The position numbers and the translations under genes were made by a program. A stretch of DNA of 64,000 bases. It comes from Perna viridis (taxonomy: Eukaryota). The notes beneath the pieces are model-generated. The model saw nothing but the letters and a program-made list of their open reading frames with translations. It was not told the DNA's origin and ran no database searches. Below are positions 31,038 through 61,357 of this stretch, piece after piece. The DNA lies in assembly GCA_037379345.1 (NCBI GenBank), contig CM074524.1, forward strand, positions 19,402,750 to 19,466,749. The letters run 5' to 3'. Numbering within the stretch: the first letter of the stretch is position 1; the number at the start of each line of letters is the position of its first letter.

Positions 31038-31487
31038 GGTCTCACTAACCACTTCTAACGTTTCCATTACTTTACATGTTAAAAAAGTAATTTTCAAAGT
31101 CTCACTGTGAATTCCCAGGACAAATGACATCTTAAAGTTGCATACCGTTGCGAAAGTAAGGCTTCCAAAATCAGTATGCTAATGGTACGATGATTGTAGA
31201 AATTCTTCACAAAATTTACTTGAATAAATAATACTGAAAATCCACATTTTTACCTGTTCTGCTAACTGACAGCATGGAGGCAAATTACTCACACATGTAA
31301 ACAATATTCATACACTTTTGTAATTAATTACATATAAGGTTTTAAAGTACACATTCTCAGCTTTATTTTGACTACTTTTAATCATAATACACACAAATAA
31401 TGCACTTACAATGCATATGTCTAGGTTCAGTGTGTTTTGGTACTACATAGGGGGTGGCCATTTGACCCGGAAGTGGTTAGTGAGACC
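31038..31487. mobile_element. MITE, PIF/Harbinger (Tourist)-like, inside the CR1 RT
   Basis: 18-bp perfect TIR GGTCTCACTAACCACTTC; TAA TSD; removal restores LPSNYRPIALLS. Confidence 0.9.
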
Positions 31488-33350: not shown

Positions 33351-33750
33351 AAGAGTTATCAAGGGAACCAAGGTTATAGCGGTAATCAAAAGAATGTAAT
33401 CCAGGGTCAAAGACCAGACATGGAAAACAGACATACATAACAAAGAACATAAACTAACTAAAATCATACATACAAAGTAACAAAAGCAAATAAGCAACTC
33501 GGACTCCACTAAAAACTGGGAGCATGGACCAGGTGCACCGGTAGGGTAAGCGTCCTCTGCTTTTCTAGAAACACCCGCCGAGTTGCTCATAAAAAGTCAA
33601 GTCCGGGGTAGACAAACGAGGAAAGGAAAACTATGACCCGTTGAATAAATCAGTTTTCGTGGTGCTGATGGATACACCATAACGATCCACGAGTTCATGA
33701 TGGTGACCATAAAACTTCTGTAGTGATGACTTCAATCTTGTAGCAACATA
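33351..33750 (-). mobile_element. 3' fragment of a probable Penelope-like retroelement, copy A
   Basis: Reverse-complement of 54523-54925; encodes ..[22 protein letters not shown].. plus 3' UTR. Confidence 0.6.
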
Positions 33751-34759: not shown

Positions 34760-37700
34760 CCACGTCTAACCGGATTGACAACCTACCCTTGTTGCAGATG
34801 TGTAGCTCCCTTGACACACTCTGTCGGAAGAGCCACAAGAGAGCATGTAAAAGGAGGCCCAATGACTCAAAACGGTATATTTTTTTCAATTACAGTTTTT
34901 ATATCAGGTTCAAGATTAAATGGCCAATGTTTTATGGTGACTTTCGATAATCTTTATTTAATTGTCTATTTAGGATAATTATCAACCATTTACAAAATCA
35001 ATTAGGGCCACAGTGTCAATCATCTACGCCAATACACAGTAATTTCCAATCAAACCCACCGCCACAACATATAAATTCCGTACAGTGTCAAGGACAATAC
35101 ACACAATTGTCAACAATGGGACAGTTTCCTATTAACAATAGCATCGGTGTTGTTTTGAACGACATTCAAAATAAACTTACAAAATTAAACCTACTGGATA
35201 GTATCGTTGATAGATTACGAAACATAGAACAACGATTTAATGTGGTTGAAAATGACATTGTACAACTCAAAAGGTCGGTATCGGATCATCAAAACAATTT
35301 TGAAAAGAACAATAGTGATATGCAAATTTTTCATACAAGATTACGCGACCTAGAAGCAGCAAAGGGGGAGCTTGAGGACATGACTTATAAAATGCACGAA
35401 TCGTTCTTGGACCAACAAACCCGTGCGATGAAGTACAACTTAATTTTTGAAAACATCCCCGAAGTGAAGCCTGATCCTACCACAACTGAAAATACAGAAA
35501 TGGTATTAATCGATTTTATTAAAAATGAAATGAAAATTGACTCTAACATATCGTTTCATAATGTTCATCGTTTAAAGCCACGGCGTGATCGAAAACCACC
35601 ATCAATTGTAGCAAAATTTCTTTACAACAACGAAAAGGAAAAAGTTCTCACCGCTGCTAGAACCGAACTGTCGGGAAAACCGTATAAAGTATACCAGCAA
35701 TACCCGCAGGAGATTAGCGATAGGAGAAGGCAGTTAGTGCCAGTCATGAAGGAACTACGCGAACAAAACCAAAGGGCATATATAGTACGTGATAAACTTT
35801 TCGTAAATGGTAGACCGTATATCACAGACGAACCAAGACAATGTAACCATATTAACAGGATGCAACAGGAAGGAATGAATTCCCAAAATGTGCGCGGTAC
35901 AGTTCCGGATTTCAGGCAGGTACATTTCAGGTAGGCCAGGCGGCATAGTGGTGCAAAAGAACAGTACAATAAAAATTGTAATAAACATTTTCTTAAGTTA
36001 TCATGTCTGAACGTATGTGGTTTAATTTCAAAATTAAAAAACCCTGATTTCTTGCAATTTATTGAAAACTATGACATTTTATTTTTTCAAGAAACAAAAA
36101 CTGATATATATGATCACTTGTGTTAACCAAAAGGTTATAGTTACAAAGCCAAACACAGGAAAAAATGTCATAAGAAATATGGTGGTATTATAATTATTTA
36201 TAAAAATTATCTATCCAAATTTCTGGAATTTCCGGAAACAGAGTCCGATTATGTTCAGTTGGTGAAAATTGATAAATCCTTATTACAATCTGATCACAAT
36301 TTTATTTTTGGATGTATTTATGTCCCACCCGAAAACACTAAATACTCTTCTCACGAAGCGTTCAATGAAATTGAATCGGAGATGATTGATATGGTGAAAG
36401 AGGGTGATTATATTGGATTTCTTGGTGATTATAATGCAAAAACTGGTACTTTACTAGATTATGTAGAAACAGACAAGTCATTATTAGATCTGTTTGATTT
36501 AGATGAGGATGTAGACTTGATAAAGTTCATGTATGACTATGAAAATTTAACAAAAGCAGGTATACCATTAGATAGAAAAAATTCTTGTACAGGTCGACCA
36601 AATGCATACGGCCACAGGCTACTTGATTTTTGTAGAAAAAATAATATTTATATTGTAAATGGTCGAGTAGGTAAAGATAATATGAAAGGTGAATGCACAA
36701 GTGGTGACATATCACTGATTGATTATTTTTTAGCATCTTCAAATTTATTTCCATATATTATTGATTTTGAAGTAAAAGATTTTTCGCCATTATTTTCCGA
36801 CGTACATAAACGTTTACACATTTCCCTTGGTATGTTGAAACGCGACCGGACGATTACCGAATCCGAGACACCTGATGACAGTATCCCGACTACACGTCCA
36901 CGCGCTTGGTCCGAAGATAAAACTGAAAACTATATAGAATGTTTTCTGTCAGGCTCGAGATTTGAAAATATAAATCGCTTTGTTGATTTACTTGATGAAA
37001 AGCATAATAACGGAGAAGTTATTACAGATGACTGTGTTAACAAAATTGTTGACGACATCGGCGAACTTTTTAATGACACAGCAAAATCTGTGTTCGGGAT
37101 TAGAAAGAGTCCTACAAATCGAGATGGACCTAATAGTGATAATTCGCAACAGACCCCGTGGTTTAATACCGCTTGTAAAGATAAGCACGAAATTTTTCAT
37201 ACAGCTAGAAAAAAATATAACGTTTGTAAAAGCGATTTAAATAAAGCGCGAATGAATCTTGCTAGTCGAGAATACAAAAAAGAGCTTAATAAAGCATACG
37301 ATCAATTTCAAAACAAGATGACGGGTGAAATAAGAAGCGTTTCTAAGAGTAATCCAAAGAAATTTTGGGATATTCTTCGCCGCTGTACCAACAGCAAGAA
37401 GTCAGATATTGATGTCGCGTTAAAAGATTTGTACGAATATTTTAAAGAAATAAATCGTGGTGACGACACTCAATTAGATTTTAATCCTGATGAGCAGAAC
37501 GATATTAATTCTGAAATTTCAGACCGTATACTGAATGGTAAAATAACGGCAGCAGAAATAGAGAGTGTGGTGAGAAAATTACATAGTAATAAAGCATCTG
37601 GTTTAGATTTTATTACTAATGAATATTTAAAGCACACACTCATTATTATGCTTCCTGTTTATACGAAACTGTTCAATATAATTTTTGAAATGGGTATTGT

Positions 37701-39655
37701 CCCCGAATCATGGACAACATGTAATATACATCCAATCTATAAAAATAAAGGGAATTCGATGGATCCGAAAAACTACCGTCCTATAAGCCTAGTAAGCTGC
37801 TTCAGTAAAGTCTTTACTACTATTATAAATAACAGGCTTACTTCGTTTTCTGACGAAATTAACCTTATTTCGGAGGTACAATGTGGATTTAGAAAATCAC
37901 ATTCAACGGTTGATAATATTTTCATCTTGAATTCTTTTATTGATTTATATTTGCATAAAAAGAATAAATTGTTTTGCACGTTCATAGATTTTAGTAAAGC
38001 CTTCGATAAGGTGAATCGAAGTGGTCTCTGGTCAAAAATGATAAAATCTAATATTCAGGGAAAATGTTTTAATATCATTAAGAATATGTATCAAAATATA
38101 AAGTCATGTGTAACTAAAGGGGGTATTAATTCAGATTTTTTTGCTTGTGAACTAGGTGTGAGGCAAGGGGAAAATCTTTCGCCCTTCCTCTTTGCAGTCT
38201 TCATGAATGATTTAGAATCATATTTTGAAAATCATTATGCTGATTCATTACACATAGTTGACGATTTATTTTTCGAACATTTGAATATTTTCATGAAGGT
38301 TTTTCTCCTTCTTTATGCGGACGATACTTTGTTGTTTTCGGAAACTTTGGATGGCATGCAAAATACATTAAATATTTTTGATGATTACTGTAAATTATGG
38401 AAACTTGAGGTAAATACTGAAAAAACTAAAGTTGTGGTTTTTTCAAAAAGAAAATTTAGACCAGATGTAAAACTGAAGTTGAATGGGAAAGAACTAGATT
38501 ATACTGATACTTATTCCTATTTGGGCATACTATTTCAATATCATGGTAATTTTAATGCTGCAAAAAAGAAACTGGTCGAACAGTCACAAAAAGCTTTATA
38601 TGCTGTTATTATAAAATACGAAATTTACGACTACCAATAGATTTACAGTTAAAGATTTTTGATTCTTTGGTATCGCCTATTCTTTTATATGGTAGTGAAG
38701 TTTTGGGTATTGGAAAAAACGATAATATAGAAAAGGTGCATTTACAGTTTATGAAGAAAATACTTGGACTCAGAATTACAACTCCTAATTTTCTAGTATA
38801 TGGTGAATTAGGTCGATACCCATTATACATTAATATTAAGATTAGAATGTTGTGTTTTTGGAGTAGATTGTTAGTAACTAATAAGTTATCGTCAAAAATT
38901 TATGAATTGTTGTACTCTTTGTATATAGATGGTCAATATCAGTCAGCTTTTGTGAAAAATATTGCAAACATTTTTGATGATACTGGTTTAAGTTTTATAT
39001 TTAATAGCCAGATGCCAGTTAATCCAATATGGATAAAAATTATGTGAAACAGATATTTATTGATCAATTCATTCAAAAATGGCGTAGTGATATAGCTAAT
39101 TCATCTCGTGGACACTTTTATTCTTTCTTTAAGCAAGACTTTTGTTTAGAGCCTTATTTACTACGTCTTCAATATAATTATAGATGTTATATTACTAAAT
39201 TCAGATTGAGTAATTTCAAAATACCTATCGAAACTGGCAGATGGCTAAATATAGCAAAGGAAGACAGAAAATGTCCAAAATGTTTAAATAATGATATAGG
39301 AGATGAATTCCACTATCTTTTTATATGTACTAATCCAGAAATCAGTAACCTCAGAATTAAATATATTCCCGATTATTATATCGAATATAGCAGCGTCGAG
39401 AAAATGGCTGGTATTTTTGCATTATGTCATGTAGATTTACTGAAAAATGTATCTTTTTTTCTAAAGAGTTTGAGCAAATTATTTGTGTAATACCGTACCA
39501 TCTCTGTTAACCATGTTTTTTCCTTTTATGTGTTTGTATTTTGTTCTTTATCAATGTATATATGTTTGTAGTTAAAATGCTGTATTGTATTCTCATGTTG
39601 CACTCTGTGCCTGAGTTATTAAATAAAGTCTTTTGAATCTTGAATCTTGAATCTT
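34760..39655 (+). mobile_element. Near full-length RTEX-like LINE: ORF1 (35107..35934) and ORF2 (APE-RT-CCHC, ~35935..39490, one stop and two frameshifts)
   Basis: ORF1 coiled-coil/RRM type; ORF2 LNVCGL, QETK, GDYN, NYRPISL, RQGENLSP, LLYADD, IPIETGRW..CPKC..GDEFHYLFIC; AATAAA plus (TTGAATC)n tail. Clade assigned by motif recall; 5' end approximate. Confidence 0.88.
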
Positions 39656-41340: not shown

Positions 41341-42149
41341 ATGTTCTCTGTCGTCTACCATACTTTGTCACACTAGTCTGTCTGTCTGTCAATTAACTTT
41401 GTCACACTAGTCTGTCTGCCTGTCTGTCAATTATAATTTATCTTTGCCTGTCTCCACTTCGACCTACTTAATTGAGATGGCATTAGGCCATGTATTAAAG
41501 TCTGTACTCAAAGCAACTAAATATAGAGACTATATTAACTCAGAAGGACTAAACTGGCAGCCTTTAGCCTTTTCCATTGTTAAACGGGCTTTATTGTTAT
41601 CCCGTTTGTCCATATACTTGAAATCCTTTCTCCAAAAGATACGTGTACATAGCAGGATCTCCTAAATATAGTATTCCAAACATTAATATTATAAAATTTA
41701 AACAGAACGTGCAAAAGATCGAGAGGAATATAATAGACAAAATAATTAATTTAAGCAGCGACTTTATATTATAAGTTTTCAATAGAGAAACTTGAGAAAA
41801 TTGGCCAATGAACAGTCAAATAGAAACGACACAGTTCTTTTCAGATTATTACAAGTGACTTCTCCTAACCTAAGTTAAAAGAAGTCAAGAGCTCCAAAAG
41901 AATATTGTTATTGAATTACAAAATAAGACATGACGTATAACCCAAAGAAGAATCAGCAGTGCCATACAGGTAAACGCACCTTCGGTCGACATACGTTTGA
42001 TTTCCCATGGTCCTTCGAAGACTCCAGTTTAATTCCAATTTATTAAAAGCACCGACAGACGAATTAACCCGTCATTTTTTCAAAGGGGCCGTCTAAAACG
42101 CTGGTTTTAAACTTGGAAGCCATACCACCACCTTTAACAAGGCGTTATT

Positions 42150-42739
42150 TGGACAAAGTCCTTATCAGGAAAAACAGGTAAATCTCTGTTTAGTGTTTAC
42201 TATTTAGAATCCAATGTAGCCTAGGAAAATTGTAAATATGGGTTACTGAAATATTACACGACAATTTTATGCTGCCATAATATGCAAAATAGTTTTGGAG
42301 AGGTCAAAGTTGAATTTTGGCTTATTATGGGCTGTATATTTCTCTACAAGTGGACTATCTTTGTTTAGTAGTCGTATCTTTCGACTCCGTTATCAGGAAT
42401 TTTCATGGTAATAAGCCCTTTGATTTATCGCGTTTTACAACCAACATGTCCGCCGCGCGCGCTATCTCTCGTCTGCGTCAGGGTAGTTACTATACAATCA
42501 GTGATAAAGTTTTATCATTCTATTTTTCGTATCTCTATTCTGCTCTTGAACCATTCGGAGAAAGTTTGCGGACAACTTAACATGTTCATTTGGAATTTGT
42601 TCTTTTGGACTTTTTGAACTTAAAATTTAAACTTTGATTAGTCTTTTAAATCAGGAAGTCACCTAAGACGACGTCTATAGATATTTTTTTCAAAGTCAGG
42701 ATTTAAATTTCTGAAAATGTGTTTTCATTCCATGGCAAG
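42150..42739 (+). promoter_or_regulatory. Putative GATA promoter and first (leader) exon
   Basis: CpG-rich patch near 42450, Inr-like TCAGT at 42498, clustered WGATAR sites, nuclear-receptor DR1-like motifs, strong donor AAG|GTAAGC at 42739/42740. Confidence 0.5.
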
Positions 42740-43144
42740 GTAAGCAGTGAGTCGATAGAGTGGAACTCTGTCGGTTGGCTTTCAGTGTAGTGGCTTCAAT
42801 TGTTCAATATACCGCGTCACTTAATAAATTACATTTTCACAATTTCGTCACGTGACCAATTTAAACGGTTTTTTAGTTTGGTAAATAGTTTTTCATTTTA
42901 ACTCTTCGCTTCTGAAATTTTCCAATTCGAAGAATACATATATTTTGTAAGTAAAACAAGAAGTTTTCTGGGTTTGCTGACGTTAAACCTGCTTACATTA
43001 GTGTTCTAATTTTAACAGGTGCGCGAGTTCACATTGGCAGGTGACGACAAGGTTTACAGGTAGTCCACGGAATTGTGACTTTGAACCTTACGAGCTGAAA
43101 CAACGCCTCCTACGGACTATATACAATTGTATATTATTTCCAAT

Positions 43145-44060
43145 ATGACTGAAGTTGACCAGGCATGGCAAAATAATTCGCCTGATAATTATTCTCAAGA
43201 AGGTCGAGAAACACCATGTCATGAGGATACTAATTCCGCAGTAGAGGAGCTTGAGAATTCCCGACCATGTGAAGATACGCCTCAAGATTTCAGCGATATC
43301 GGTTCAGAGTCCAACCCCGACATCAGGTCAAACTCTGAGTTGTACACTAATGGAGTAACGCCACTTTGTCAAGTGGTGATACAATCTGCCGAGGCTGTGG
43401 CTGAAACCGCACAAGCAGTAGAAAGCATAAGTCAGGATATTTCAGACGAGAATCGCGTCGAGGAAAATAATACTCTGATTCAGGACGGGGATGGCAATGT
43501 GACATATACAGGTTATAATATACAACCGGGCAGTACACTGACACAATTAACACCTGTGCCAGCATTTGAATCTGCCACGGGACATTTATTACCTAAGGAG
43601 GACGTAGAAGCATTTTTCAGTAATATGGACCACCCGGCTGCCACTTCGGTGACACTTACCACGCCCAATTACGCTGCCACTGGTAACGGTGAATTTACAA
43701 CTCTGACAAACGCGCAGTCACTGTACCAAAACTTATTAACAACTCAGCATCAGATCGTTGATAACCAGGGAGCATACAACATGACAACTCTGTACTCTAA
43801 CCCCAGGGCGCTAATGCATTACGGTGGTACCACGACAGGATGGCAGTTATCCGCTGCAGGGGATGCACTTTACAGTTCACCAGGATCCAGTCCTTCAGCA
43901 GGAAAGTACAACAGCTACGCCATCAGCGGGGACCCTGGTTCCCCTTCAAGCGGGAGAAGTGATTCTGTAGATATACCAAGACAGAATATGCAGTATACTA
44001 ATTTCCTGACCCAAGACGGAGGCTATAACTTTACCATTCCAAACAACTACGGAGCACAAG
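43145..44060 (+). CDS. GATA456: GATA coding exon 1 (acidic, S/T/G-rich N-terminal region)
   Basis: ATG 43145 in ORF 43127..44077; CAAG|GTAAGA phase-1 donor matches the N-finger exon; contains [11 protein letters not shown]; upstream acceptor TTTTAACAG ending 43018. Confidence 0.8.
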
Positions 44061-47000
44061 GTAAGATTTTAAAATAATTTAGTTGTTGCTTATTTTCTTT
44101 TTATTTCGTTTGTTTGCTTTATTAAAAATATGTTTAATTTCTTCAACTTGCTTTAAGATACATCGCATATACACTTCGTGGTAAAAATGTAAACTGTATA
44201 AATCTCTGTATATCGTATACAGTAATGTAAGCTTCATAACGTGTTGTACATCCAAAAATGTATATTATTCTCTTTATAGGCAACATTAAATGCTTGTTTG
44301 ATTTTTTAAATTAATTAAGGATTTATGTGATGCATTATGCTCCTAAATTAAATGTAGCTCAAATATTTATATAAAACATATATTTGTTGTGTCTTTGAAT
44401 AAAAATATATGCATTATTTCATACATTATAAAAATTCCGAAATCAAAATCTAAATTTTTGATAAAATTAGAATTAACAAGCGGTACAATAATTAAAGGGA
44501 ATTATATTTTTTGATATTATTTTATCAAAATTCCTCATTAGAAAATACTAGTTTATCTAGATAATAATTTTCGGTGTGAAGCCATTGTATAGTTGTTTGT
44601 GTGTGTACATCAGTTTGTTTATATAGCACTAAAAGATCAAGAGATAACACTTTAACTCCCACTAATCTGTTTAGACAGTAATTAAATTTTTACTAGAAAT
44701 TATCTTTGAAAAAAGTATAAATATCTGGCTGTACACCACTGATTTCGTCAATTCGAGACGATATATATTCTCTTATATAAATTGTAAATCTTTTTGAACG
44801 AGATCAAGGCTCTTAAAGGTCGAGTTAAAAACGTTTTATGACTTATAACTCGTTATTTTTCACATGAATGTTCTATTTTATCCAAAAATTTGAGACAATA
44901 AATATTTACTTATAAAAATGAAAACCTTTTTTTACGAGATCAAGGCTCTCAAAGACGATTTATAACTTTAAAATTATAAATCGTTATCTTTCACATGAAT
45001 GTTCTATTTTATCCAAAATTTGAGACAATAAATATTTCCTTACATAAATGAAAACCTTTTTGAACGAGCACAAGGCTCTCAAAAACGATTTATAACTTTA
45101 AAATTATAAATCGTGATATTTCTCATGAATGTTCTATTCCCCTTTCTGATTTTTCGTAGTTCCTTATTGAATTGGAATAAAACAGGAAAGAGTCTATAAG
45201 GAATACCATTATGCAATATATAATGATAAAACAGGTAATAATTTATAGAGAAAAAAAAAACAAACAAAAAACAATTTTTTATGCATAGATATTGTTCAGC
45301 ATTTGGGGTTTTTTCTTTTCTTTTGTTTTCTTTTTAATTTGGTTTAAATAAACATCATATTAATCGCCACAAACTTCTAGATAAATAAACAGCCTTAAAA
45401 TTATGAAAATACAAATGAACTTTGATAAAAAAAAAATCAAATTATCTATGAATCTAATCGAATTTATTACGTTCGGTGTCTCCATCAATAAACGTGCCAC
45501 CCAATTTGTTTATTAATTATGACATCAGTTGGTAATTCAATTATCATGCATACGTCGATGACACGTGTGACAATTTGCATCCAATTAACAGACAAGGAAG
45601 TGTCAACATGGGAATCTGATATAATATATATTTCAGATTAAATTCTTGATCATTTAAAAATACAAAAACTAAACAGACCGATGGGTTCTTTATGAATATA
45701 TGATACCAGATATAAAAAATACAAAAATGAGTAACTTCTCATCAACATTATTATATAGATCCAAATACATGTGTAAGAAGATGTTAATCTCAGTTATCTA
45801 TATATAAGTGTGTGTCTCTCCTTTTAAATTGGGATAGAAAAGGATTCTTCTATATCAATAAGTCATATATTCGAAACTTTACGATCACGAGGGGAGTCAT
45901 AAATTACTTTCTTTAATATATATATGTATTTTAATTCGCGCTAGACTTGATTTGTAATCGTTTATTTTGCTGCATGTATACGTACATGTAGCACAATAAA
46001 TGGAATATTTGAATTCAATGGATTATGTAATATTTTTACTTAACGAATGTCATTAGTATAAAACTAAATTGTATTGTGATGTCTGCGTCTTCTTCTTTAA
46101 AAAAATAAAATTTGAAACTATAATTTTACAACAGAATAACACCCTCCAACGTGTACCAAATTGGGGACGTTTTCGCTCAGGAAAAATTATTGTGTTTGTC
46201 TTACACAAGTTTCGACCATAAATCTGGGTTTACGGCCCAATAATCAAATATTTGCGATTTCAAGTACATTTATTCGAGGACAGAAACTCGAAGCTTTTTA
46301 TGGCTATATGTGCAGTAAAAGATTCAGTAATAAAAGACTAAATTAATCACTATATATTTTAGGTGTGTCGATCTGCAAAAGTGATAAAAGTACGTTCTGT
46401 GTTTATTCAAAAATAAGTGTATAGATTATTTGATTTTCTGGCCCGATTTTTTCTGATTTGCAGAATGTTTGGGTATAGATATGAGGACAAATTCAGTTCT
46501 AAATTTACGTATCAAATTGTTCAGACCTTATTTGTTCATCTTCCACTCTGGTAGCGAAATATAAATTAAATAATAATAAAAAGAAATGAATGAATGTATT
46601 AAAAAAATTTAAAAATGTCACCACAATACAAAACAAAAAGGACTTTCAACTGCCCAAACGTACTGTAGATTCTAGACAGTGCCGCTTTCAGAGAAATTTG
46701 TTGCATTTCTTTTTATTTTGTATCTGTTTTTTTTTTTTTTTTCGTAGAGAGTAGGAAATGTCCATGGGATTTACTTACGGAATTAACTATGTTTTTCAGT
46801 GACTATAAAGGACGAAATGACATTTTACCAAAGTCTTACAATTTAACGATAGTTATCAATAACGAAAGAAACGGGTATTTTTTATACATGTTGTACAAAT
46901 TCCTCATGGATATTGCATGTACATGTATGTGTTCAAATGCTTAGTTCATAGTATATACGGCATACACATGGTCAAACATAGTGAAAATGCACACCATAGA

Positions 47001-50000
47001 GACAGAATCACCATTTAAACTGGTATTGAATGAATTGAGACGAAATGGTATTTTACTAAAATTTTATAAATTAAGGATACATATAAATTACGAAGAAACG
47101 AGTGTATGCTAACCATTTTTTGTGCAAGGGTTTCATCAAAATTTCATAAGGAAACTCAAGTGTTCAAATGCTTGTTTGCAAATTTAATATTGAGTAAACC
47201 AAATTTAGTATACATATACACAGAAGTTTGGTCTAATTCGGTCTATAAATTTCCTCAAAAATCAATTTACTTGAAACAAATGACATGTTTGGTCCTAGTT
47301 GCCTAGCAACAATCTTAGATCAAGAGTTGTTTTGTAAAATGTTTCATTGTGTTGAAGCTCGAGAACTTAACAACGAAACATTTTTAGGGATTAGGCTTTC
47401 CTTTCCCGCATTATATGAACGTAAACCTCAGTCCGAGGTTAGTAATAGTAACGACTACAGGGTCTAAATTTCTCATTAATTGATGTATATTGCATGCTCT
47501 GTTTGATTTTGTGGGGTTTTCAACTAGAGTCGACCCTGAATCTGTCATTCTGTCATGAATAATTGTTCATTACTTTAATGAGTAAGGCTGGAACCATTAA
47601 AAAAAGACAAGATCTAAGGTTAAGACTGCAATTTTTTTATGTGGTCATGAACTTTCTTTAGTGACTTTGAAATTACACGAATTTTGAAAATCTTTACATG
47701 ATTCAGCTCCATAACTTCAAAGGAGAACGAATATTATCATGTTGCATTCCCCTGTTTCCCACTATTTGGAATCTTACGCGTTACACTCCCCGTTGTCAAC
47801 TACCCCAAAGAATGAAGTGTGCTTGCTAAGGGCGTTTTAATTTTGTACAGTATTATTCATGAAATGAGGTATACATGTAACGTGTTCATTTGTAGTAATG
47901 ATACAATTTTGTGAACAGTATTCTCTTCTTTCCTTTTTCGTTTTTCGTAACCACAACTTCTGAAACAAATATGTACAGGTACCACATATTTCATTTTTGT
48001 ATATGTCTTCTTCCATGTGTGGGTTGTCAATACTTGTTTTTTCATGGAAAAATATAGAATTCAATTTAATTCCTGGTTAAAGGCCAAAGTTTCATAACTT
48101 TTGGATTTTTTTAACAGGTAAATGCACGTGGGTAAATGTAGGCATCCGGTGACTCCGATGTAATGTGTCTGGGCAATGGGTGTTTTTTTTTTTTGTTTAT
48201 CTCTTCCAATTCCATAAAGAGTGTAATTTTCACAACATCAAACAAGGCCAGGGATCTTCATTAGAATCTTTTGGTGAAAACTTTCTGATTGACCTACTTT
48301 CAAGCATAATGTCTATGAAGGATGAGCTATTAGTAAAAAGTATGGTCAGTGCGCGTTAAAAGATCAAGAGGGCATTACGACAATGCCCAAATCAGATTCT
48401 TCAGTGAAATAAACACAGGTATGCTAGTGATACTGCCTTTGACGGTCATACCCCCTTTTTGAGTCGAGACATTATCAACGATTCAGGCAATACCACTGTC
48501 CCTTGGGCAGTCAATTTATCAGGACGAAGCCGTCTTCTGTAAGCAACTATTGCATATTCATTAGTAGAATAAGTACTTATGAATTTGTTTTCCACCTAAC
48601 TCTATGATCTATATATATGTTCGAAATCTAACAAATTGCTAACAGTTGAGAGTATATTTGCAAATGCAAAGTCTACACATGTGAAAACCTATTCCCGTTT
48701 ACAGCAAATTTCACAGGACTTCGAAGTTTCGAAGTCCAATACCCTTCCCATCATTCTTATATATATTCGTGTGAAAAGTCCAGGCGTCCAATTTTTTGTA
48801 AACATTTGAGTAAAGTTTATGTATTACAAAGTCCGTACATCAGATAATTTCTACATGTTATCAATTCTTATCTGAAGAATGGTTGACACAACACAACATA
48901 TGCGACACAAAATATTGGACCTCATCGATTTTAATCTTAATATTTTATCTCTTAGATAAAGAAAATCAATGTGGAATTTTCTTGTTATCTTGTCGTGAGC
49001 AACGTAAACTTTTGTGCACTTCTTCAGACAATGGACGTCATTTAAGATTACGAAAATACTTGCTAAAATGCACCAGGCCTAAAATTCGAGCACCTGCTTT
49101 TAAGAATAGTTCTTTATCCCATATGTGATAAGACTATGGGGTATATGTTAATGATCTTATGGAAAAACAAAGACCCATAATCTCAATGATAGTCGATTTA
49201 AAAAAAAAATTGAAGGGCTCCCACGGTTTGAAACTTTGATTGTTAATGATGGGCCCTAAAATGGTATTTTCAGTTAGTAGTAAACTTTTTCGGAAATATA
49301 AACCTTTTCAATAAACAGAGTAAAATACTTTTTACATCTCTTATGTTTTTGTCAAAGGCGGTGTTTTGAGCTGTGTACTTTGAAACAAATGGTACAATGC
49401 ATATTAGTCTTTTTCTGAAGAATTCTGTTCAGCTTGATTTATCTCTTAGAGCTATTTTTGGTGCATTGTAATGCAGAGTTATCTTTCTTTTGCTTCACAA
49501 GTTGACAAATGGAGGCAATTAAAATAAAAGTAAATATTATTTGTTTCTCATTAATGGTCAAAGAGTTTTAACAAAACTATGGGATAATTTGTTTCTTGTC
49601 ATTTATGAAGATAGTAGGTAGTGCAAGGTGTTTGATATTAAAAGGGGATTGAGTTGATCCTTTTGTATATGTTTTATTTCAGCGGTATCTCAAAAATTGA
49701 AATTGGAAAGTGAGTTATTTCTGTTTATGACCATCAGTCTTAGCCACTTTATTTTATGTGCTTTTTGCAATTATTGAGTGAAGATTTTTGCCACAGTATT
49801 TCGAATCTTGTTTATTTTACATGTACACATGTATACATGCCCGTACTTGAACAGCAGGGGAAAGAGCAGAGACATTTGCTGATTCTCTATAGTTACAACG
49901 AATAATCTCTCCAAAATATATATATGTTAACTCACACATCATAAGTTCGTTATTTTACGGATGATTTTAGCATTTCCACTAGCTGCAATGGTTGAATATG

Positions 50001-53000
50001 TGAAATGACAAGCCACTCAACTTGGCACGTGCATCCCCGGGGGTGCACCAGTAGCTCTGGTTTGACCAGGTTGTCTGCTAATTGTGTGTAGTTTGAACAC
50101 TGTAATGGGCGATAACCCCGGCACACCAGCTGGAGGAAATACCATTTTTTGTCTGTAATTTGATATTTTTCGGAAGTTTCTTGCAATACCCCTAGGCAGC
50201 CCCATTCAGAGATTAGCATGGCGAAGCTGAAGCTACTCTTTCTTTAACACAGAATTTCATCTCACTTTCAGAGGACCAAGGGACATATTTTGACATGGGT
50301 GAGGGTAGAGAGTGTGTAAACTGCGGGGCGGTGTCGACCCCTCTCTGGAGGAAGGATGGAACCGGACATTATCTGTGTAATGCATGCGGCCTTTATCATA
50401 AAATGAATGGATTAAATCGCCAACCAAATGGTAAACAGATACAATCACCAAGAAGGGTATGTATCAACGTGGCTATATAAAACTACATGTAGTTCCATTT
50501 AATTTGTTCTTTTGATTTTCTTCCACCCCTATTTAAAGATTCATGTTTGTTTATCACTTAGCTGTTGCATGTCAAGATTTCTTATCTATCTATATATATA
50601 TATATTCAAATTGTTCAAATTCCTAACGTGTTTTTGAAATATCAAGCTTGAGACTCATCAATCACGTTAATTATTCACTAAGTAAAATCTGATTTGGTTT
50701 GAAATATGTGAGAACATAAGATGTCTGAAAGAACAAAGACATTGAACAATGAAATAACCCGTTTGATGATTTACTCTCTTCTACATTTGAAATATTTCGT
50801 CCAAAATCCAATTTTTTCCCCTGTTTTTCAATATAAGAATGTGTTTTTTGGACTCGCTTGTCTATAACATGAAAAGGTAAATATTTGAACTTTGCATTAA
50901 TTTATGCAATTCTATTTATTCTGATTCATAATCTGACAAATAGCTCATAATCCGAAATGCAAACACATCACCATGGGATAAAACACTAAACTCCCGCATC
51001 GAACCCCTTTTTCACACATAATCGCTAATGGTCCATCTCCCATCCCATGGTGCTGGCAGCCAATTCATCGAACTTATCTGGTTATAAAATTCTTTCAACT
51101 TCTACACTATTTTCTTTTGACCATGAGAAAATTGAACCCCCAGGAGCCCCATGATTTATTCTGGTGAGGGGTGTTGGGTTTCACTCATGTAAACTTTTCA
51201 TCATTATTTATTCATCGGCAGTGCAGGCCACACGTGTGTGCTTTGCATTAATAAGAACAAGTGTTCAGAAATTTCGTATTTTCAGGGAGTGTTTCCTTTC
51301 GTCCCTCATTGGAATTTCGTTGAGAGTTTGAGATTTTTAACCTGAGAATTTTCCGTAAAGATAACACGAAAAAGAAAGATTCTAGTTTTTTGGCTGATTT
51401 CGTCAAATTTGCTTTGGATACTTCACGGTGTTGATCAGTTTGGAAAAGAGCTAATATTGGAACCCTCTGGATTGACACTCATTATCAAATAGACTTTTAT
51501 ATAGCTGTCGTGGTTTTTAACAGTTTAGTCCACTTTTGAGAAACCAGAACGCTTTAATAAGTTAAGGAAGAAGCAGTGCAGTAATAAACCCAAAGCAGTC
51601 CTAACACAATGTTACAGTATTACCAGTATGGAAATTTCACCGACGATTTCTCCAATCTTTTCCAGGAACCTGTTGAAGAAGAAAAACCGAAGAAGTTTGA
51701 CAAGAGTAATTATGGCGAAAAGGTATGTTAATTCGTTCACAGGTTTTACCCTTTTAGGATAAAGGTTATTTTTGTACAAGAGTAATTAATAGGACTTGAA
51801 AGTTAGCAATTTTTGCCTTCTAATAGAAGGGATTCTCAAGTGTTCCAATTCGTGTGAGTCCTAGGTCCGGGATCTTCAATTACTGACTCCAGGACTAATC
51901 AAACTTCTTTTAACTAATCCATGGACGTTCAATGCTAAACATTGAGCTGTATTTAGGACTTTTGGTTTTCCTCCAAATTTTAAAATGTATTGGACATTCG
52001 TCTTTCAATAGCAAATTTGAAGCCCTGACTTCTTTTTTTAACAGATTAATGTCTTTAACGTTTTTTCCCATAATACTCAGAGGAAGTACTGGTAACGTGA
52101 ACCATTTTAAAAATATCTTTGTAAATATGAAAAACTTACATCCATTCACTGCTACGGAAATTTCAGAAGTAAACTTGCTCTTGTTTACATTTACGTCAAG
52201 TACTGCTGATGGAAACACCCAAAGTGATGCAGTACATTTCTATCTAATAAGTGACGTCTTTGTTAGGTTCCTCTCCTTAAACAACTTCTTACTCTGTACA
52301 TGTTTTATGAACATGCGAATCTAATTAAAGAATCGATTGACTGTCCGTAAATTTTAATGCCTGTCATATATATGTGAATGATTTATTGTCCATAACTTTT
52401 AATGCCTGGTTGTCATTTATATGTGAGAAGGAATACAAATAATCTGTCGCCGCGTCTGTCCGTCCATCTGTCTTTGTTCTTGTTAAGGTTAGGTTACGCT
52501 ACGGGTGTACCTGGTCCATGCTCCCAGTTTTTAGTTGAGTCCGAGTTACTCATTTACTTTTGTTAATTTGTCTGTATGATTTTAGTTACTTTATGTTCTT
52601 TGTTGTGTATGTCTGTTTTCCATGTCTGGTCTTTTTCCCAGGATTACATTCTTTTGATTACCGCTATAACCTTGGTTCCCTTGATTACTCTTTGCTTTCA
52701 AGCATTTTTAGGGAAAATGTGTTTTCACATCTTGAGCTATATGATTTATGGTCATATGTTTTTTTTAATTGATATGTTTTACTGTACTTCTGGATGAGTA
52801 GTGCCAAGCGAGGCAGTATTACTAAGTATCATATCTCAAGATTGATCTAGCTAGTACAACAGTGTACATGTATAAGGTCTAAGCATAGCCCATGCCATGT
52901 CAATCTCAAACTACTAACATTGGGTTCATGTAATTATCAGTTTCATGAGAGCTTTTGTATTGTACAAAATAAACTTAAATATCGTACTGAAGGATAGTAT

Positions 53001-53586: not shown

Positions 53587-56500
53587 TAAAAATAAAATAA
53601 AAAAATGTTAAAACATAATCGTAGAAAAAGACCGTTGAAAAAAGTATCTGGTAGGTTCTTATGGATCAATGTTTTGAGATGAAGATTTATGGTTCGTCTG
53701 ATGTGAGTTATTTCTGTTTTAATGAGGAATCCCATACTAAAAGAGTTAATCCAGGATTGTCGGTAATCCTTAAGATTTTACCTGTTGTTATCCTTAGTGA
53801 AGCACAAATCGGCAAGTTATAATTGAAACCTTTTGAAATGATAAGACGCAGTAGAAAAAAAAGTACATCTAAAAACCGTTTAACGATATAATGTATCATG
53901 ACCACGCACGCACGCGACATATGTTTTGCTGAAGCATGAAAATGTATATATAAAACATATATATAAAACATACGCGTAGCATCGACAATCGTGCAATTAT
54001 GACATGGAGGAAAATATGGCTTTTTTGTGTTCATATGTTTGCATGTTACCTTCCGTTTGTCAATGATTCAAGAAAATAGCGCGAGATTTTATTTTCTCTG
54101 ATATAAAGATTTATAAAAAAATATTTTTCGACCGCAATCGTCATCTGATGTCCGGACAGTAAAATCAGTACGAGTACATGGATGCCACTCTAGACGTTCT
54201 TTGAAATGTATAGTTGTCCACAGTTTTAAATTGTCGTTGCTGTGTCGTATAAGTGCGATGTCTTGTAACACTTTCATTCTGAACCCTACGATGTGTCAAA
54301 CATTTTCAATTTGGGCAGCATCAACTTAGCCCAGGGTAGCTGAATAAGGGGTTCACTGTTTTTATAAATCTCATACACAGAGAATATTGATAGTAAACCA
54401 TACTCCAATTTATTTGAACACTGCACAACATTTTACATGTATTAATTCTTTTTTTATGTTTCCATCCGGCTTGTATCACTTTGTATTGCGCTAAAATTCT
54501 AACAATTAGGCTTCTGGAACATGGTTATGTTGCTACAAGATTGAAGTCATCACTACAGAAGTTTTATGGTCGTCATCATGAACTCTTGGATCGTTACGGT
54601 GTATCCATCTGCGCTATGAAAACTGACTTGTTCAACGTGTTATAGTTTCCTTTCCTCGTTTGTCTACCCCAGACTTGACTTTTTATGAGCAACTCGGCGG
54701 GTGTTTCTAGAAAAGCAGAGGACGCTTACCCTACCGGTGCACCTGGTCCATGTTCCCAGTTTTTTAGTGGAATCCGAGTTGCTTATTTGCTTTTGTTACT
54801 TTGTATGTATGATTTTAGTTACTTTATGTTCTTTGTTATGTATCTGTTTTCCATGTCTGGTCTTTGTCCCTGGATTACATTCTTTTTGATTACTTCTATA
54901 ACCTTGGTTCTCTTGATTACTCTTTTGCTAACCAAGGGTATTTTTAATTATCAACTGATCAAAATATTGTATATATTCCCCTTTTTAACACCTCAAACAA
55001 CGAATATGAAACTACAAGTGTTTCTTGAATCATATCGTACACGAAGAAGCAGTTTGATATGCATGTGACTTCACTATAAATTTGTTTATAGAGGAACAAA
55101 CAGTTCTTGATTAGAGGGATACTTTAGTTAGCACTCGACACCTTTTTATTACCTCGATTATGGCGACATTTTGCTGTCTTCTCGACAGAATGTCTAATTG
55201 TTTCCATCTAATGTAATATTTTAACATTATTCATGTTTTACATGAGTAGTATAATATGATTAACATTTCATTTTAAATGTAGAATTGTGGTAACTTTTTT
55301 TCAGTTAGTTGACAATTTGATTATACATATTAATATCTAGCTGCAGCTGCTGTTACATCTATTTCATGGTCTTATCACGACCAAGGTACCACCCCTCTTA
55401 GTGATCTGGATAAAAGAAATAACTACTTTGCAACGTAGTCGTTCACCTTGATTAGAAATTCGCGAATTTTTAGCTGTTGTCAGACCTGTCTGCGATCCAT
55501 TAGCCACTCTTCTCGCAAGGAATGAAATTATAGATAATGCATCATTGCCGTTATTGACTCTAAATACGTGATTTTTATATGGAAATGCACACAATTTAAA
55601 TGAAATTCAGGATATATAGATACCGTTGAATGGAAAGTTGACCGTGAAGAAATCAGAAGAAGAAGAAGAAGAAGAAAGCATTTTTTAAATCAAGTAAACG
55701 TAATAGAAAAGTTGAAACATTTAATGATGTCTAAATGTTTTGGTCTTGTATTGCCTGTCTTTTTTTTGAATGTGTGATATTTTTTGTCAATTAGGAACGA
55801 GAACCGTGTGATTTGTAAACTTTTACTTTGCCTCATCTTTTCGGGATATTGTTTTTCTTTATTCATTATTCGAATATTAAACATTCGATATAAATTGACA
55901 AAGTGCACAAGTGTTTTGATTTTTGTACAAATTACTAAAACAGCTACCGGTTAATTTACGGGATTAGCTTTAGCAATTCTGTTGTTTTTTCATGAGATGT
56001 TTTGTAACCAATTCAGTCGTACTTCACGTACATCTTAAGTTATTTATTCAGAAACTGAGGGTTTTCTGATATCTCCTGCCTTATACTTAGGAACACGGCT
56101 ACTCAATTTCCATTCGACAATAAATTTTTATGAATCATTCAGGAATGAAAATGAGATGTAGATCTCACTTCATAAAACACTAGTATCTTTAATTCGCAGG
56201 GGGTGGCAATGAATACAGTCTTGTGCGAAAATATTATGTCGATTTTACGCATGAAGATAAATTAAAAGCTATATTTAGTGACACGCTCGTGCAATAAGTC
56301 ATAAAACAAAAATTCTCATTAAATTGAATAAAAAAAACACTATTCCATAGATTATTCGCCTTCTGTTTTGAGTTTTAGAAGAACTTATACATATTGTCGA
56401 TTTTTCACTCAATGGCATGAAAACAATTCTAAAAATAACCACCGTCTGATTTTAGATATTTTCTACCAATCTTTTTTTTCTTTCCAAGCAACTGCCTTTA

Positions 56501-59500
56501 ATCAGATTTTCCACAATGTATATGAAGCTAGGAGGTTTTAATCGGTCTATTTTTCAAAGAGAGTTTATCAACGTAAATCGCTAGCTCACTAAAGTGTGGA
56601 TTTCTGATATGTGAAACATTTGGTTGGCGCGGTTCACTTAAGATCGGCAAAATAAACAAGCTCTAAAGTAAACAGGACTTGTTTTGTTTATAATGTCTAA
56701 CTAAACATCGTTTGTTAATAGTACTACACGATTGAGCAGTCTAAATGATTGGATTTCTGCATTAAAGTTATCAAAGAAGATGTTATAATAATATCGGCGT
56801 TAATTAGTAAAAATATCGTCAGAATACCATGAAAGCTTTGAAATGTTTTCGTTTAACTTGTTAAACATTTGGCCGGACTAAAAGGCTTAATACATGTTAC
56901 GAATGATGACGTAATTCAGCATCTCTTTCTAAAGAAGATGTACATATTTTCTTTCAGTCCGTCTGCCCTTTTTTGTGTGTTCACGGCAAAAAAACGGGAG
57001 GATAATCTGTTTGCAACCATAAGAAAACATTTTGAACACAAGTGGCGTTTTAATCACTGCAAAAAATATGTATTCATGTTTGGAGGTTAACTAATAACTA
57101 TAGCTCCTGCTACTAACTATGAAGGTTTCCATATTTCAAAAATTTCAAAATAATTACTTTTTAACTACATCCACCTTGCCAATGAACTTGTCGCCACCTT
57201 AAAGCCGTTCCAATTAACTCCCTGTTCTGGCTAATTGGCAATTCTGTCTTAATGACTAGTGGGTCTGCATCTTGTCAGAAAAATACCAATTAACAAGAAA
57301 TTTCAGTGTTTACCGGGTCAGGACCAACTTCCCGTCACATTAATTTAAATTTCAGAACAAAAAGTATGCACAAGGTATTAAAGATATATAGCATGTTGTG
57401 AGGTCGCATTTCTTGAAACCATCCCACTCATTCTTTAATATTATTACATTAGTTTTCACACACCCGTTTTTACAAGAACCTTTTTAAAAGTCGTAAGATA
57501 GGAGTACACGAGAAATTTATCGGCTACTTATTCATGGTTTTGTTCTTTCTTGTATTTAGTTCATTTCAGTGCTGGTTCAAAGGGATTTGGGGAGGGAGGG
57601 GTCCGGAGGCTCGAGCCCTACTTTTGTTGGAAAATATTGTGAAAATTTGTGCAAAATCGAGAAAATGGGTAAAATGAGCAAATGATTGTTTGAACCACCG
57701 TTTTATTTTTCCATTTGACCGACACCCCTTCCCCCAACACCCTCCGGACCGTTGATGAACCTTGCCTTTTATAAATCATGTCTAAAGATTTCCCAAGGCA
57801 CCAAAAAAAATGGGAACAATTGGGAGTAGGATATATCTATATTACAGTAGAATACTACGAAATTCAAAAACCAAACTAAAGAAAAAGGGAAAGAATGACA
57901 AACTTGATCAGCATCAAGACTAAATTGCTTTCTCTGACTTATTAAAGTCATCATGTCGACTAATTGAATCACGCAATCGAAATAAAAATAAAATCACTTT
58001 CAATTTATGATTTTGCATGTTAATCGCTATATCATAAAGCTCGTATTGCTAAGATTTGATTAAATTTTCAGCGTGAAGTATTATTTTATGGCCGATATTA
58101 CGTACTTAATGTAAAATTCATTAAAAGCTTCATCTGCACTGTGCGAAACACGCTGTCAAAGGGTATGGCAGGATCAACAATGACATTGTAAAAGTAGGCG
58201 CTTGCTAAAAAATGTGAATGTTTACAAAAAATGGGTTGGATTACTTGGCCGAGTATATGAAGCTGTTGTTCGTTGATATATTTGTGTCCCGAATATTGCA
58301 TTCCATCTGTTAACAAGAGTAGTTTTATGACAAAACAAAAAACAAAAAAAAAACTAATTTTGAAATATGTTTTTTTTTTCAGAAGAAGTTCAAAGTTGTT
58401 TCGTTTCTTTTCGGGTTTTCTTTTATTTGGCGAGTATTTATATAATAAAATCCGTATATTTGGGTTCGTTATTTTCTGATAATTTGCTAGAATAAACCGT
58501 GTTGTTGTTTACAAAGACAAATGAATGTCGGAAATATGTTTTTGTGTCCAACGATAAACATGCATTTCAGTCGCTTCGTAACATATTCTAAACCCGTTTC
58601 AGATCCGTTTCAAATAAATATAAGCCATATTTTATACATGGCTGTCAAAACATGCTGTTAAGGCTCTCCACGATTGTTTGTTCAACTAAAACAGGAAAGT
58701 CATGGATTATTGACGCATTTAATACATGTAATCATCCAACATTAGTTACTATAGCAACCAATATCAAATGGGATAAAACAAAGATCTTCAAATCCACGCC
58801 AAACTCCTATATATTATTCGGAGTGTACAGAACAACAGTGTGCATTAGTTTAGTTAAAATGTCTTATAACATGTAAACCCGTTTGAACTGAGGTGTGTAA
58901 GTGATTCGTGACTTTTACTTTACCCCTTGTGTCAGTCTGCACTAGATAAAAGTTGTCTAATTCTGAAGAATTACGAGTTTTACCTACTGCCCTATAAATC
59001 CAGTATGATGTTATTGAAGTAAAAAAAAGTTATTCATCATGGATGTTTTTTTAATCATCAAATGAGATTTGTGAATATTTTGACGTTTTGAAATAGAAAA
59101 GCACAATTAAAAACAAAACCAAATGGTTTTAGAATCGGGTATCAGTTTTGTCAAACTGATAATACCATCTTCCATAAACCTCCCAAATAAACTAGAAACC
59201 AGAAGCGGAAAGAGTCTAAAATATTCGGCTCTTTCTGGTTGTTACTGAAACTAACCTTTCAACAAATTCAATGATCTTTTTTTATTTGCAGGTGAACAAT
59301 AGAAGTCGAATGGGCCTATCCTGTGCTAATTGCGGGACTACAACAACGACATTATGGCGGCGGAACAGCGAAGGAGAACCCGTATGTAATGCATGCGGAC
59401 TCTACTACAAGCTTCACCAGGTATGATCAAGTGACTAAGTATCCTGACCTTTATACATGATTTTTACCTGCGTCAGTCTAGTCACCGACGGTGAAAGCAC

Positions 59501-61357
59501 GTCAAACAGCCGTCCGTCCGTCAGGCTTAGTGATTCATACTTTATATCAAAACCAGAAATTAATTAAAATTAATTATTAAGGTAGTAGTGACCTTATTCG
59601 GTTCGACAGATGCTTTCGTTAAATTCACGTTTAAGAAGGTGTTGTGAGTGCTTGAATTAAATGGTTTTATTTGTATTAAAAATAAGTTGATTGATAAGCC
59701 GCAGTATGTACAGTATAGTAGATATTAGAAAACATATATACTGTTTCAATTGCTTTAAAAAACACAAACAAAAAAAAATAAAAAAAAAAATAAAAAAAAA
59801 AAAAAAAGAAAGAAAAACACACACACACACAAAACAAGCTACGTTCAAGATTTTAGCCATGGCAACAACTTTAAAAGATGTAGTGATGTAGTAATGACTA
59901 GGGTATGAGCATATCTTGCCCACTGATCGCCACAGAAAAGCAAAAAAATAAATAAATAAAACATAACAAGCGCTTGTTACAGTTTGTAGATAGTTTATGA
60001 ATCATATTACGTGCACATTAACACGGAATAAAATCTTTATATATGAAAAAATTATTGTTTCAATCACATCATTATACCTTGTGAATGAGTCATAGTTTAC
60101 TCGTACAGGAATGTTTATTTTGTAATTACAGGTTAATAGACCTATGTCCATGAAAAAAGATGGTATACAGACAAGAAAGAGGAAAGCCAAAGTCTCGTCT
60201 AAAGCGGCCACGCCCACCCGCGAGATCAACAACACACCCGACCATACCGTTATACCTACGTCATACATGCCGTCAATGCCATACACTACTCCCCACTCGT
60301 CATCTGCCGGTTTACTAGATCTTTCAGTGACCAGACCAGAAAATCCATCAGGTAAATTTTGTCATTCATTACAGGATACAGTGGACCTCTCCTTTTTGTT
60401 TAAAAAAAATGTTGTTTTGGTGCAAAATGTAGGCAAAAGTGAGGAAATGTTGGTTTTGAACCTACCCCTTTTATGAATTTCTGGATCGGACCCTGTTTAT
60501 GTAAATTTTTTGTATCCACCTAGTCTCTTATGTAAACTTTGCCGTAATTCCCTTTAGGTTAAATAATTCATTACGCAAGAAGGGAGATAACTACGTTTTT
60601 CTCAAATTCATGTTTATCTGTATTTATTAAAGAACAAAGAAGGAAACACTCCATATGTTGGGGAAAGTATGTTTAAACTATAGCCATCTTGTCCAATTTA
60701 TGCCTTCTAATATGGTGGCTGCACTATCGAATATCAAAACCAAGTATAGGTAATTACAAAACAGTTATAACTCACTTCAGATGGTCGTAACAACCTAGTC
60801 CCTATCTAAGCAACGCGTTGATATATTTTATACCCGAAAATCGTGTCTAAAGAAGTTAGATCTAAATCTGCCCTACCACACACGAAACAACTCATTATGA
60901 AAAAGTTCCACATTTTACTGTTTAAAGGTTCCTATATAATCGACTTTTATTTATATTATAAATTAATTCTTATGCTTTGTTTATTCCAGTTCCTGATATC
61001 AAGAACATAACGTCATACCCGAACCTTTATCAAAGTCACAGTTCAGTTTTAGCTGCCCTCAGCGCACCACCACCAGCATTGTTGCAAGTGGGAAGTCCCC
61101 CACCAGGCATGCTTCCTTCAATCCAGCATGTAACATCCGGTCACATGACTGAGCTCGACCGTTCCATGACCTTTCCACCGGAATTAGTCTTGAAGCAGGA
61201 ACCTATGTTTGAACCTTCACCACCAAAAGCTGTTCCTGTTTCTGTTCCGGAATTAGAAGCCGAAAATGAGCTTAGAGCCACCAACGGAACGCCAACGGAT
61301 AACTCCCCATCAGATATTACTCCGCTGAAGGCAGCGTCTATGGTGTCACAGAGTTAA
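43145..61357 (+). CDS. GATA456: GATA4/5/6-class zinc-finger transcription factor, 5 coding exons, ~605 aa
   Basis: Two fingers, [25 protein letters not shown] and [25 protein letters not shown], followed by [23 protein letters not shown] and TRKRK point to the 4/5/6 class rather than 1/2/3. Exon phases 1,0,0,1 are consistent. Confidence 0.93.
44788..45140. repeat. Tandem repeat, ~130-135-bp unit x ~2.7
   Basis: ACGAGATCAAGGCTCT...CACATGAATGTTCTATT recurs three times. Confidence 0.88.
50272..50456 (+). CDS. GATA456: GATA N-terminal zinc-finger exon
   Basis: CTTTCAG acceptor, AGG|GTATGT donor; [37 protein letters not shown]. Confidence 0.95.
52498..52693 (+). mobile_element. Shorter copy C of the same repeat (3' UTR only)
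   Basis: Matches 54735-54926. Confidence 0.7.
54470..54926 (+). mobile_element. 3' fragment of a probable Penelope-like retroelement, copy B
   Basis: Translates [51 protein letters not shown], resembling the RT C-terminus of mollusc Penelope-like elements (from recall); three copies share the 3' end but differ at 5'. Confidence 0.6.
59292..59420 (+). CDS. GATA456: GATA C-terminal zinc-finger exon (not in ORF track)
   Basis: TTTGCAG acceptor, CAG|GTATGA donor; [43 protein letters not shown]. Confidence 0.96.
60132..60351 (+). CDS. GATA456: GATA basic-tail exon
   Basis: TTACAG acceptor, CAG|GTAAAT donor; [20 protein letters not shown]. Confidence 0.93.
60990..61357 (+). CDS. GATA456: GATA last coding exon (P/S-rich)
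   Basis: TTCCAG acceptor in phase 1, open to TAA 61357; contains LKQEP, a SUMO-type psi-KxE motif. Confidence 0.8.

Follow-up and report, generated by a model that had tools for sequence, protein, structure and literature searches.

Does a two-finger GATA gene of the mussel Perna viridis harbour a further exon between its finger exons, and could such an exon begin a protein with a single finger? The window in which this question arises is a stretch of 64,000 nucleotides (G000:C14:19402750-19466749) that carries the gene on its + strand. The initial annotation had pointed to an ATG at 51609, in the context ACA-ATG, opening 38 codons that end at a phase-0 donor (AAG/GTATGT, 51722/51723), with an in-frame TAA at 51585, and had proposed either an alternative first exon encoding a C-finger-only protein of about 276 aa or a cassette exon lengthening the linker. 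On re-reading the sequence we recovered all these features and the same peptide, together with the C-finger acceptor at 59292, and joining the exon to the three downstream exons indeed gives a predicted product of 276 aa. The description of the 38 residues as acidic and aromatic holds in part: the aromatics are confined to the first 19 residues (6 F/Y, 2 D), and the last 19 form a conserved acidic-basic linker. The donor ranks third among the GT sites between the fingers and is the only site of such strength with an ATG-started frame of at least 10 codons. A frame of 38 or more codons that opens with ATG and runs up to a phase-0 donor just as good appeared in 3.6% of 500 Markov-2 simulations of the intron, for which the donor weights were approximate. 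This estimate of chance is suggestive, not decisive, and the reality of the exon is settled by the transcript data.

Seven of the 24 public runs listed were examined, namely X1, X2, X5, X8, X12, X18 and X21. None of the listed runs is recorded as RNA; X1, X2, X5, X8 and X12 are presumed to be RNA and X18 is marked '?', and the presence of spliced joints indicates that the runs are probably RNA. It should be noted that six of the seven were chosen because they contain 51480-51730 and are thus uninformative on prevalence, and that X21, the only run of raw reads, was read to 19% and contributed 12 reads on 41500-52400. Evidence for the junction 51722→59292 (GT..AG), which the initial annotation had named for an RNA-seq check, was found in 7 of 7 runs: the joint itself is seen at a depth of 198 in X8, 13.1 in X1 and 7.86 in X2 and in 1 raw read of X21, and the C-finger sequence continues after 51724 as a loose end in X12, X5 and X18 (three of four runs, the fourth being X21, which has the joint). 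Since the exon stretch is single-copy in G000, with one match only, we rejected a processed copy as the origin of these joints. Within 41500-52400 there are four joints in total over four runs: 42739→43019 (GT..AG; X12 and X18), 44060→50272, 50456→51666 (3 of 4 runs; 1 read in X21, depth 15.1 in X12 and 260 in X18) and 50456→51286 (1 of 4 runs; X18 only, depth 9.78). The joints 59420→60132 and 60351→60990 were recovered in 4 of 4 runs.

The two-finger mRNA includes 51666-51722 and encodes 624 aa, and the supposed 8.8-kb intron between the fingers is in fact two introns of 1,209 and 7,569 bases split by this short exon. As to the proposed cassette, splicing of the two-finger mRNA does employ the acceptor after 51665 (3 of 4 runs), and the acceptor at 51617 was rejected, there being no joint into 51618 among those listed, with all four joints of 41500-52400 known in 4 runs. 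Direct skipping from the N-finger to the C-finger was also rejected, as no such joint is among the 15 listed from a longer set and no loose end lies behind 50456 in 4 runs; for the same want of a direct joint among those listed, the linker exon looks constitutive rather than optional, and we regard its existence as virtually certain. The joints 44060→51666 and 44060→51286 are likewise absent from the four joints of 41500-52400 in these 4 runs. Depth over 50600-50963 is zero in 4 of 4 runs, which shows that the signal further downstream is not retention of the entire intron. The resulting map is given in Table 1, in which 42439 marks the 5' end only as far as contigs reach.

Table 1. Exons and transcript regions of the GATA gene, in window coordinates
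Feature	Position	Strand	Evidence
Untranslated upstream exon, two-finger transcript	42439..42739	+	Joint 42739→43019 in X12, X18; X18 contig begins at 42439
Large first coding exon, two-finger form (ATG 43145; 305 codons)	43019..44060	+	Joints and contigs in X12, X18; orthologues
N-terminal GATA zinc-finger exon	50272..50456	+	PF00320; joints 44060→50272, 50456→51666
Probable 5' UTR and start region, one-finger transcript	51188..51608	+	ATG-free; contig 5' ends
Minor long exon form via second acceptor	51286..51722	+	Joint 50456→51286 in X18; translation
19 codons unique to one-finger isoform, new N-terminus with 6 aromatics	51609..51665	+	Unbranched contigs in X1, X2, X5; P0001 match
57-base linker exon common to both isoforms (19 codons, acidic then basic)	51666..51722	+	Joints on both sides; orthologue linkers
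C-terminal GATA zinc-finger exon	59292..59420	+	PF00320; joints
Exon with basic tail after C-finger	60132..60351	+	Joints 59420→60132, 60351→60990
Last coding exon, to stop codon (3' UTR goes on beyond)	60990..61357	+	Transcript contigs and homology

With 58.7 and 63.4 bits, both finger exons lie above the PF00320 cut-off, and the gene has the C-X2-C-X17-C-X2-C fingers and the basic tail (in 60132-60351) of metazoan GATA proteins. Exon 1 carries a conserved LLPxExVExFF motif from codon 43586, shared by 14 of the 16 proteins in which it was sought. Among named proteins the closest is GATA4 of Mytilus edulis, with 83% identity across the last exon, and the named profile matches are mostly GATA4/5/6. 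In a tree built from 49 rows of finger domains with the linker removed (unrooted, no row known as GATA123), the gene falls in a starred 12-row bivalve set (96/84) within a weak 18-row group of mollusc paralogues (72/95), set apart from the canonical GATA4-like gene that lies on C14 at a distance of 3 Mb. It appears to be a mollusc GATA4/5/6-type gene, an assignment that comes from the named matches, the tree being unrooted. The sister GATA4-like gene lies at L001 3317-7677 (G000:C14, 22.4 Mb); its annotated isoforms in mussels, scallops and oysters (P0096/P0205, P0081/P0230) differ by about 36 residues, the long ones having an inter-finger insert, and linker length is seemingly variable in both paralogues.

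Several other features of the locus may be recorded here. The basic tail of the N-finger (50272-50456), here and in all orthologues, has diverged from the RPLIKPQRRL of the sister gene and may bind DNA poorly. Some proteins of relatives (P0013, P0017, P0021, P0070, P0084) are devoid of the big first exon and begin at or just before the N-finger; the N-finger contig of X18 is also broken at its 5' side, and the 6.2-kb intron may contain a third start. A tandem repeat (130 bases, 2.9 copies) occupies 44750-45138 in the first large intron. A short repeat at 52500-52694 and 54494-54911, with similar text at 33351-33596 (-), reaches depths of thousands to tens of thousands in all transcript runs and is probably an abundant interspersed element present in many mRNAs. 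Elsewhere in the window there is an 836-codon Ser/Lys/His-rich open stretch at 16664-19171 (-), which we take to resemble Elongin A, and upstream of the GATA gene three broken stretches on the + strand (24756-27000, 28168-33026, 34951-39487) with ORF1, endonuclease and reverse-transcriptase-like frames, presumably of non-LTR retrotransposon type.

The proposal of an alternative first exon concerns the sequence immediately 5' of the linker, and in X1, X2 and X5 this extension does behave as a first exon. In X1 a single contig of 1,199 bases runs from 51424, and in X2 one of 1,641 bases from 51466, in both cases covering the C-finger exon and the two exons after it, while in X5 a contig of 2,658 bases runs from 51421 into the C-finger exon. 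These contigs, from three studies, are unbranched; depth on the N-finger is zero, and depth in the downstream intron is no more than the exon's own bases give. In X8, X12 and X18 the extension contig instead ends at 51694, which is the break expected with the N-finger exon as a second predecessor, other upstream exons placing it at 51693. The unbroken contigs are informative precisely because the others break where an N-finger predecessor predicts, and for the same reason X8, for which no N-finger contig is among those listed, is most likely dominated by the two-finger form. Relative to the two-finger path the depth of the extension is 0.035 in X8 (7 vs 198), 0.038 in X18 (9.78 vs 260) and 0.53 in X12. 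In X8 this value of 7 is below the 10-20 of the neighbouring intron, and in X18 a joint at the 51286 acceptor links the extension to the N-finger exon. Exon 1 has some depth in X1 (1.99), so a low-depth N-finger path was possibly pruned there by the assembler.

The contig 5' ends within the leader fall at 51215, 51227, 51251, 51421, 51424 and 51466, and the first three of these contigs run across the 51286 acceptor unspliced. The leader is devoid of ATG over about 421 bases (51188-51608), where some 9 would be expected over 51215-51608 (P about 1e-4). No other ATG-free run between the fingers is as long (about 422 bases vs 222 for the next), and this one starts shortly before the 5'-most contig ends. 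It is likely to be a 5' UTR kept free of upstream starts. Contigs cannot reveal a start site, and the position of the promoter is therefore inferred; no pile-up of read starts at the exon is listed in the runs examined. The TATATA motif noted at 51498 is present, and its reading as a promoter TATA box is not supported, as it lies inside transcribed sequence, the contigs beginning at 51215-51466. Two WGATAR sites, at 51359 and 51482, lie in the presumed leader of the short isoform; autoregulation is possible, and two such sites per 500 AT-rich bases may be chance. The exon is thus used internally, by way of the joints 50456→51666 and 51722→59292, and as a first exon, with continuous genomic sequence upstream and no upstream joint in X1, X2 and X5. 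We consider it probable that this is an alternative first exon with a 276-aa frame.

Conservation of the frame and donor in relatives was judged at the protein level. The two fingers are usually spaced by 54-55 residues (71 of 103 multi-finger profile matches), and in 33 of 33 two-finger orthologue sequences from mussels, scallops, oysters, pearl oyster, ark clam and Mercenaria the spacing is 73-115 residues, always with an acidic-then-basic linker. A comparable linker occurs in Solemya, Patella, Haliotis, Gigantopelta, Pomacea and the chiton Liolophura, and judging from these protein sequences we infer that it is a separate exon in those molluscs too. P0098, a partial model from Lottia, has no linker (spacing 59), perhaps because the exon is missing from the model; Patella, closely related to it, does have the linker, with a spacing of 72. 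The linker peptide is already contained in annotated two-finger proteins such as CAG2204328.1 of Mytilus edulis.

Six one-finger proteins begin just upstream of the linker: P0001, P0022 and, from the oyster clusters, P0011, P0036, P0040 and P0049. P0001, a protein of 275 aa from a close relative, is identical at 10 of the 19 residues of the extension, a match equalled in 0 of 5000 shuffles. Over an 18-residue core the oyster extensions are identical at 15-17 positions in the three pairs compared (Saccostrea vs Magallana clusters). In P0022 (M. galloprovincialis XP_076083078.1) the extension has only 5 residues, and this model may be partial. The Pomacea protein P0179 is also a one-finger protein beginning just before the linker, and in the Pomacea cluster 4 of 4 RefSeq isoforms are one-finger, isoform X2 beginning 16 residues before the linker. 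Homology between mussel and oyster extensions was rejected, the similarity not being significant (p 0.46 and 0.07), and because the two are not detectably related, the comparison of these predicted proteins indicates that the one-finger architecture recurs while the extension peptide is lineage-specific.

A word-index search of the 45-codon open stretch against longer proteins gave 5 candidates, 0 of them at E≤10, and phmmer with the 38 residues gave 3 matches: P0057, a 40-aa unspliced reading that is 100% identical; P0058, an unrelated 2112-aa protein with 8 repeat matches, which was rejected as a relative; and P0059, a true relative. A group of 'short isoforms' of about 310 aa (P0028-P0031, P0035, P0044, P0045, P0051-P0054) was set aside as exon-1 read-throughs without a finger. 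Automatic annotation includes one-finger models that start just before the linker (XP_076083078.1 and Pomacea XP_025091322.1), and no published description of the isoform or of these one-finger gene models was found in the literature searched, the coverage of which was incomplete.

These data can be explained in other ways. Conceivably only the 57-base linker is functional and no one-finger protein is made, the extension being the 3' part of a 'poison' exon (51286-51722) or of incompletely spliced pre-mRNA truncated by 3' bias. The joint 50456→51286 in X18 with its early stop at 51343 is in keeping with this, as are the intron-like depth of the extension in X8 and its low level in both X8 and X18, which reaches just 3.5-3.8% of the two-finger path. 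However, a poison exon would need to be the sole path in X1, X2 and X5; moreover, contigs of X8, X12 and X5 run unspliced across 51286, and the ATG-free leader would be left unexplained, as would conservation of the start and of the extension peptide in P0001 and between oysters. We therefore hold this explanation to be improbable. The minor long form itself has a predicted 386-aa N-finger-only product, with the stop 377 bases before the next joint, and the transcript is probably a decay target that is degraded; if this joint, found in 1 of 4 runs, is counted, the gene may have three kinds of product, NC, C-only and N-only. Still less credible, to the point of being very improbable, is a one-finger form that arises from the upstream promoter by splicing of an untranslated exon to 51286, with exon 1 and the N-finger skipped. 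An untranslated exon (42439-42739) does exist and the 51286 acceptor is functional, but such a joint is absent among all 4 joints in the range covering both places, the depth of X5 on 42439-42739 is nil except for a 21-base repeat match, and three contigs run across 51286 unspliced.

A different objection accepts that the one-finger mRNA is real and starts internally, and regards it as a tolerated by-product of transcription at a strong internal exon, or a weak competitor, without a selected role. The weight we give to it overlaps with the structure proposed here, the dispute being over function alone. In the runs where it has no competing path this mRNA reaches a depth of only 8-16, mussels and oysters do not share a conserved extension peptide and that of P0022 has just 5 residues, and hybrid first-internal exons are very common in human, at 80,000 according to the available text of PMC11797052. 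Against this, there is no upstream ATG over about 421 bases, the extension retains identity at 10/19 with P0001 and at 15-17/18 among oyster clusters, and the same architecture is found in several lineages. We consider an unselected by-product unlikely and lean, if only slightly, towards a selected, distinct function for the one-finger isoform.

The preferred reading, which we hold with good confidence, is that of a dual-use or 'hybrid' exon, serving as the linker in the 624-aa form and, in its entirety, as the first exon of a predicted C-finger-only form of 276 aa. Like the human hybrid exons it is internal in some transcripts and first in others, with a common donor, as that source describes (PMC11797052). 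Starts of the human exons are, in the same text, typically centred at the 3' splice site, whereas the mussel contigs begin 200-450 bases before the acceptor and have an extension that is coding. The mussel gene retains ZF1, ZF2 and 3'CD as separate exons, and this three-exon GATA domain is kept in nearly all lophotrochozoan GATA456 genes according to the available text of Gillis et al. 2008 (PMC2383905). It differs from that ancestral domain in the extra exon between ZF1 and ZF2, and ZF1 joins 51666, not 59292, in place of direct splicing of ZF1 to ZF2. The same paper describes exon structure as little changed among lophotrochozoans; as the Lottia model P0098 has no linker, the extra exon may have escaped notice there.

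The N-finger keeps the ECVNCG stretch, the valine of which corresponds to the FOG-contact residue. A search of G000 with the CCHC_ZFPM2 profile (PF25445) for a FOG gene gave no match, and the profile matched no control either. In chicken and mouse the short GATA5 protein is reportedly one-fingered. As far as PMC9099915 describes them, citing MacNeill 1997, truncated isoforms of chicken and mouse GATA5 arise from alternative first exons and the truncated GATA5 is active; the mussel gene is similar in that the choice of first exon or promoter gives a truncated GATA456-class protein. In GATA5 a coding exon is excluded after an untranslated first exon, whereas in the mussel an inter-finger coding exon is extended upstream, with its own ATG and 19 residues. 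The closest parallel in product is Drosophila serpent, for which the available text of PMC8844375 describes a two-finger SrpNC and a C-finger-only SrpC from one GATA456-class gene, the N-finger binding the FOG cofactor U-shaped and the one-finger form being the essential one, with its own targets. That text attributes the Srp isoforms to mutually exclusive internal exons 4A/4B, with the N-terminus retained, a switch thought to be hexapod in origin. Like SrpC, the predicted mussel product (a 276-aa frame in spliced contigs of X1 and X2) comes from a two-finger gene with the N-finger dropped. Unlike SrpC, it is apparently made by way of an internal promoter with loss of the whole N-terminus, and the linker exon is common to both forms; a mutually exclusive exon swap with a retained N-terminus is not what the mussel gene displays. 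It is thus SrpC-like in outcome and a hybrid first-internal exon in mechanism.

We propose that in some samples an upstream promoter would make the two-finger form abundant (depth 200-300), and that an internal promoter, with initiation presumably within 51190-51470, would give the one-finger mRNA at a low level, as the sole path in other samples (depth 8-16) where the upstream promoter may be quiet. Translation from the ATG at 51609 would then yield the 276-aa protein. Its frame keeps the C-finger, the basic tail and the entire C-terminus, lacks the N-finger and the N-terminal 305 residues, conserved motif included, and has instead 19 new residues, six of them aromatic. In GATA proteins the C-finger and its basic tail bind DNA; the N-finger makes binding to palindromic sites more stable, and FOG-cofactor function depends on it, as the serpent source relates (PMC8844375). 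By analogy the short protein, having kept the C-finger, tail and C-terminus, should bind single WGATAR sites, and loss of the N-finger would mean escape from the cofactor and no stabilisation on double sites. Most likely, if the fly is a guide, it would, as SrpC does, regulate a different range of targets independently of the cofactor. More tentatively, the extra exon may have been gained in one mollusc GATA456 paralogue before the split of chitons and bivalves and become a promoter exon in mussels, oysters and perhaps apple snails, through which the gene would be switched, from one tissue to another, between a cofactor-sensitive factor with two fingers and a cofactor-free factor with one; molluscs would then have a promoter-based switch convergent with that of SrpNC/SrpC, a scenario that we regard as plausible and somewhat short of probable.

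For this paralogue, any probe, knock-down or orthology tree built on a two-finger domain of 54 residues overlooks one exon and mixes two products. The principle is already known from flies, and the gain here is one of scope and mechanism. An independent switch in molluscs, if true, would point to repeated selection for shedding of the N-finger, and would provide a non-insect system for testing whether the N-finger restricts target choice.
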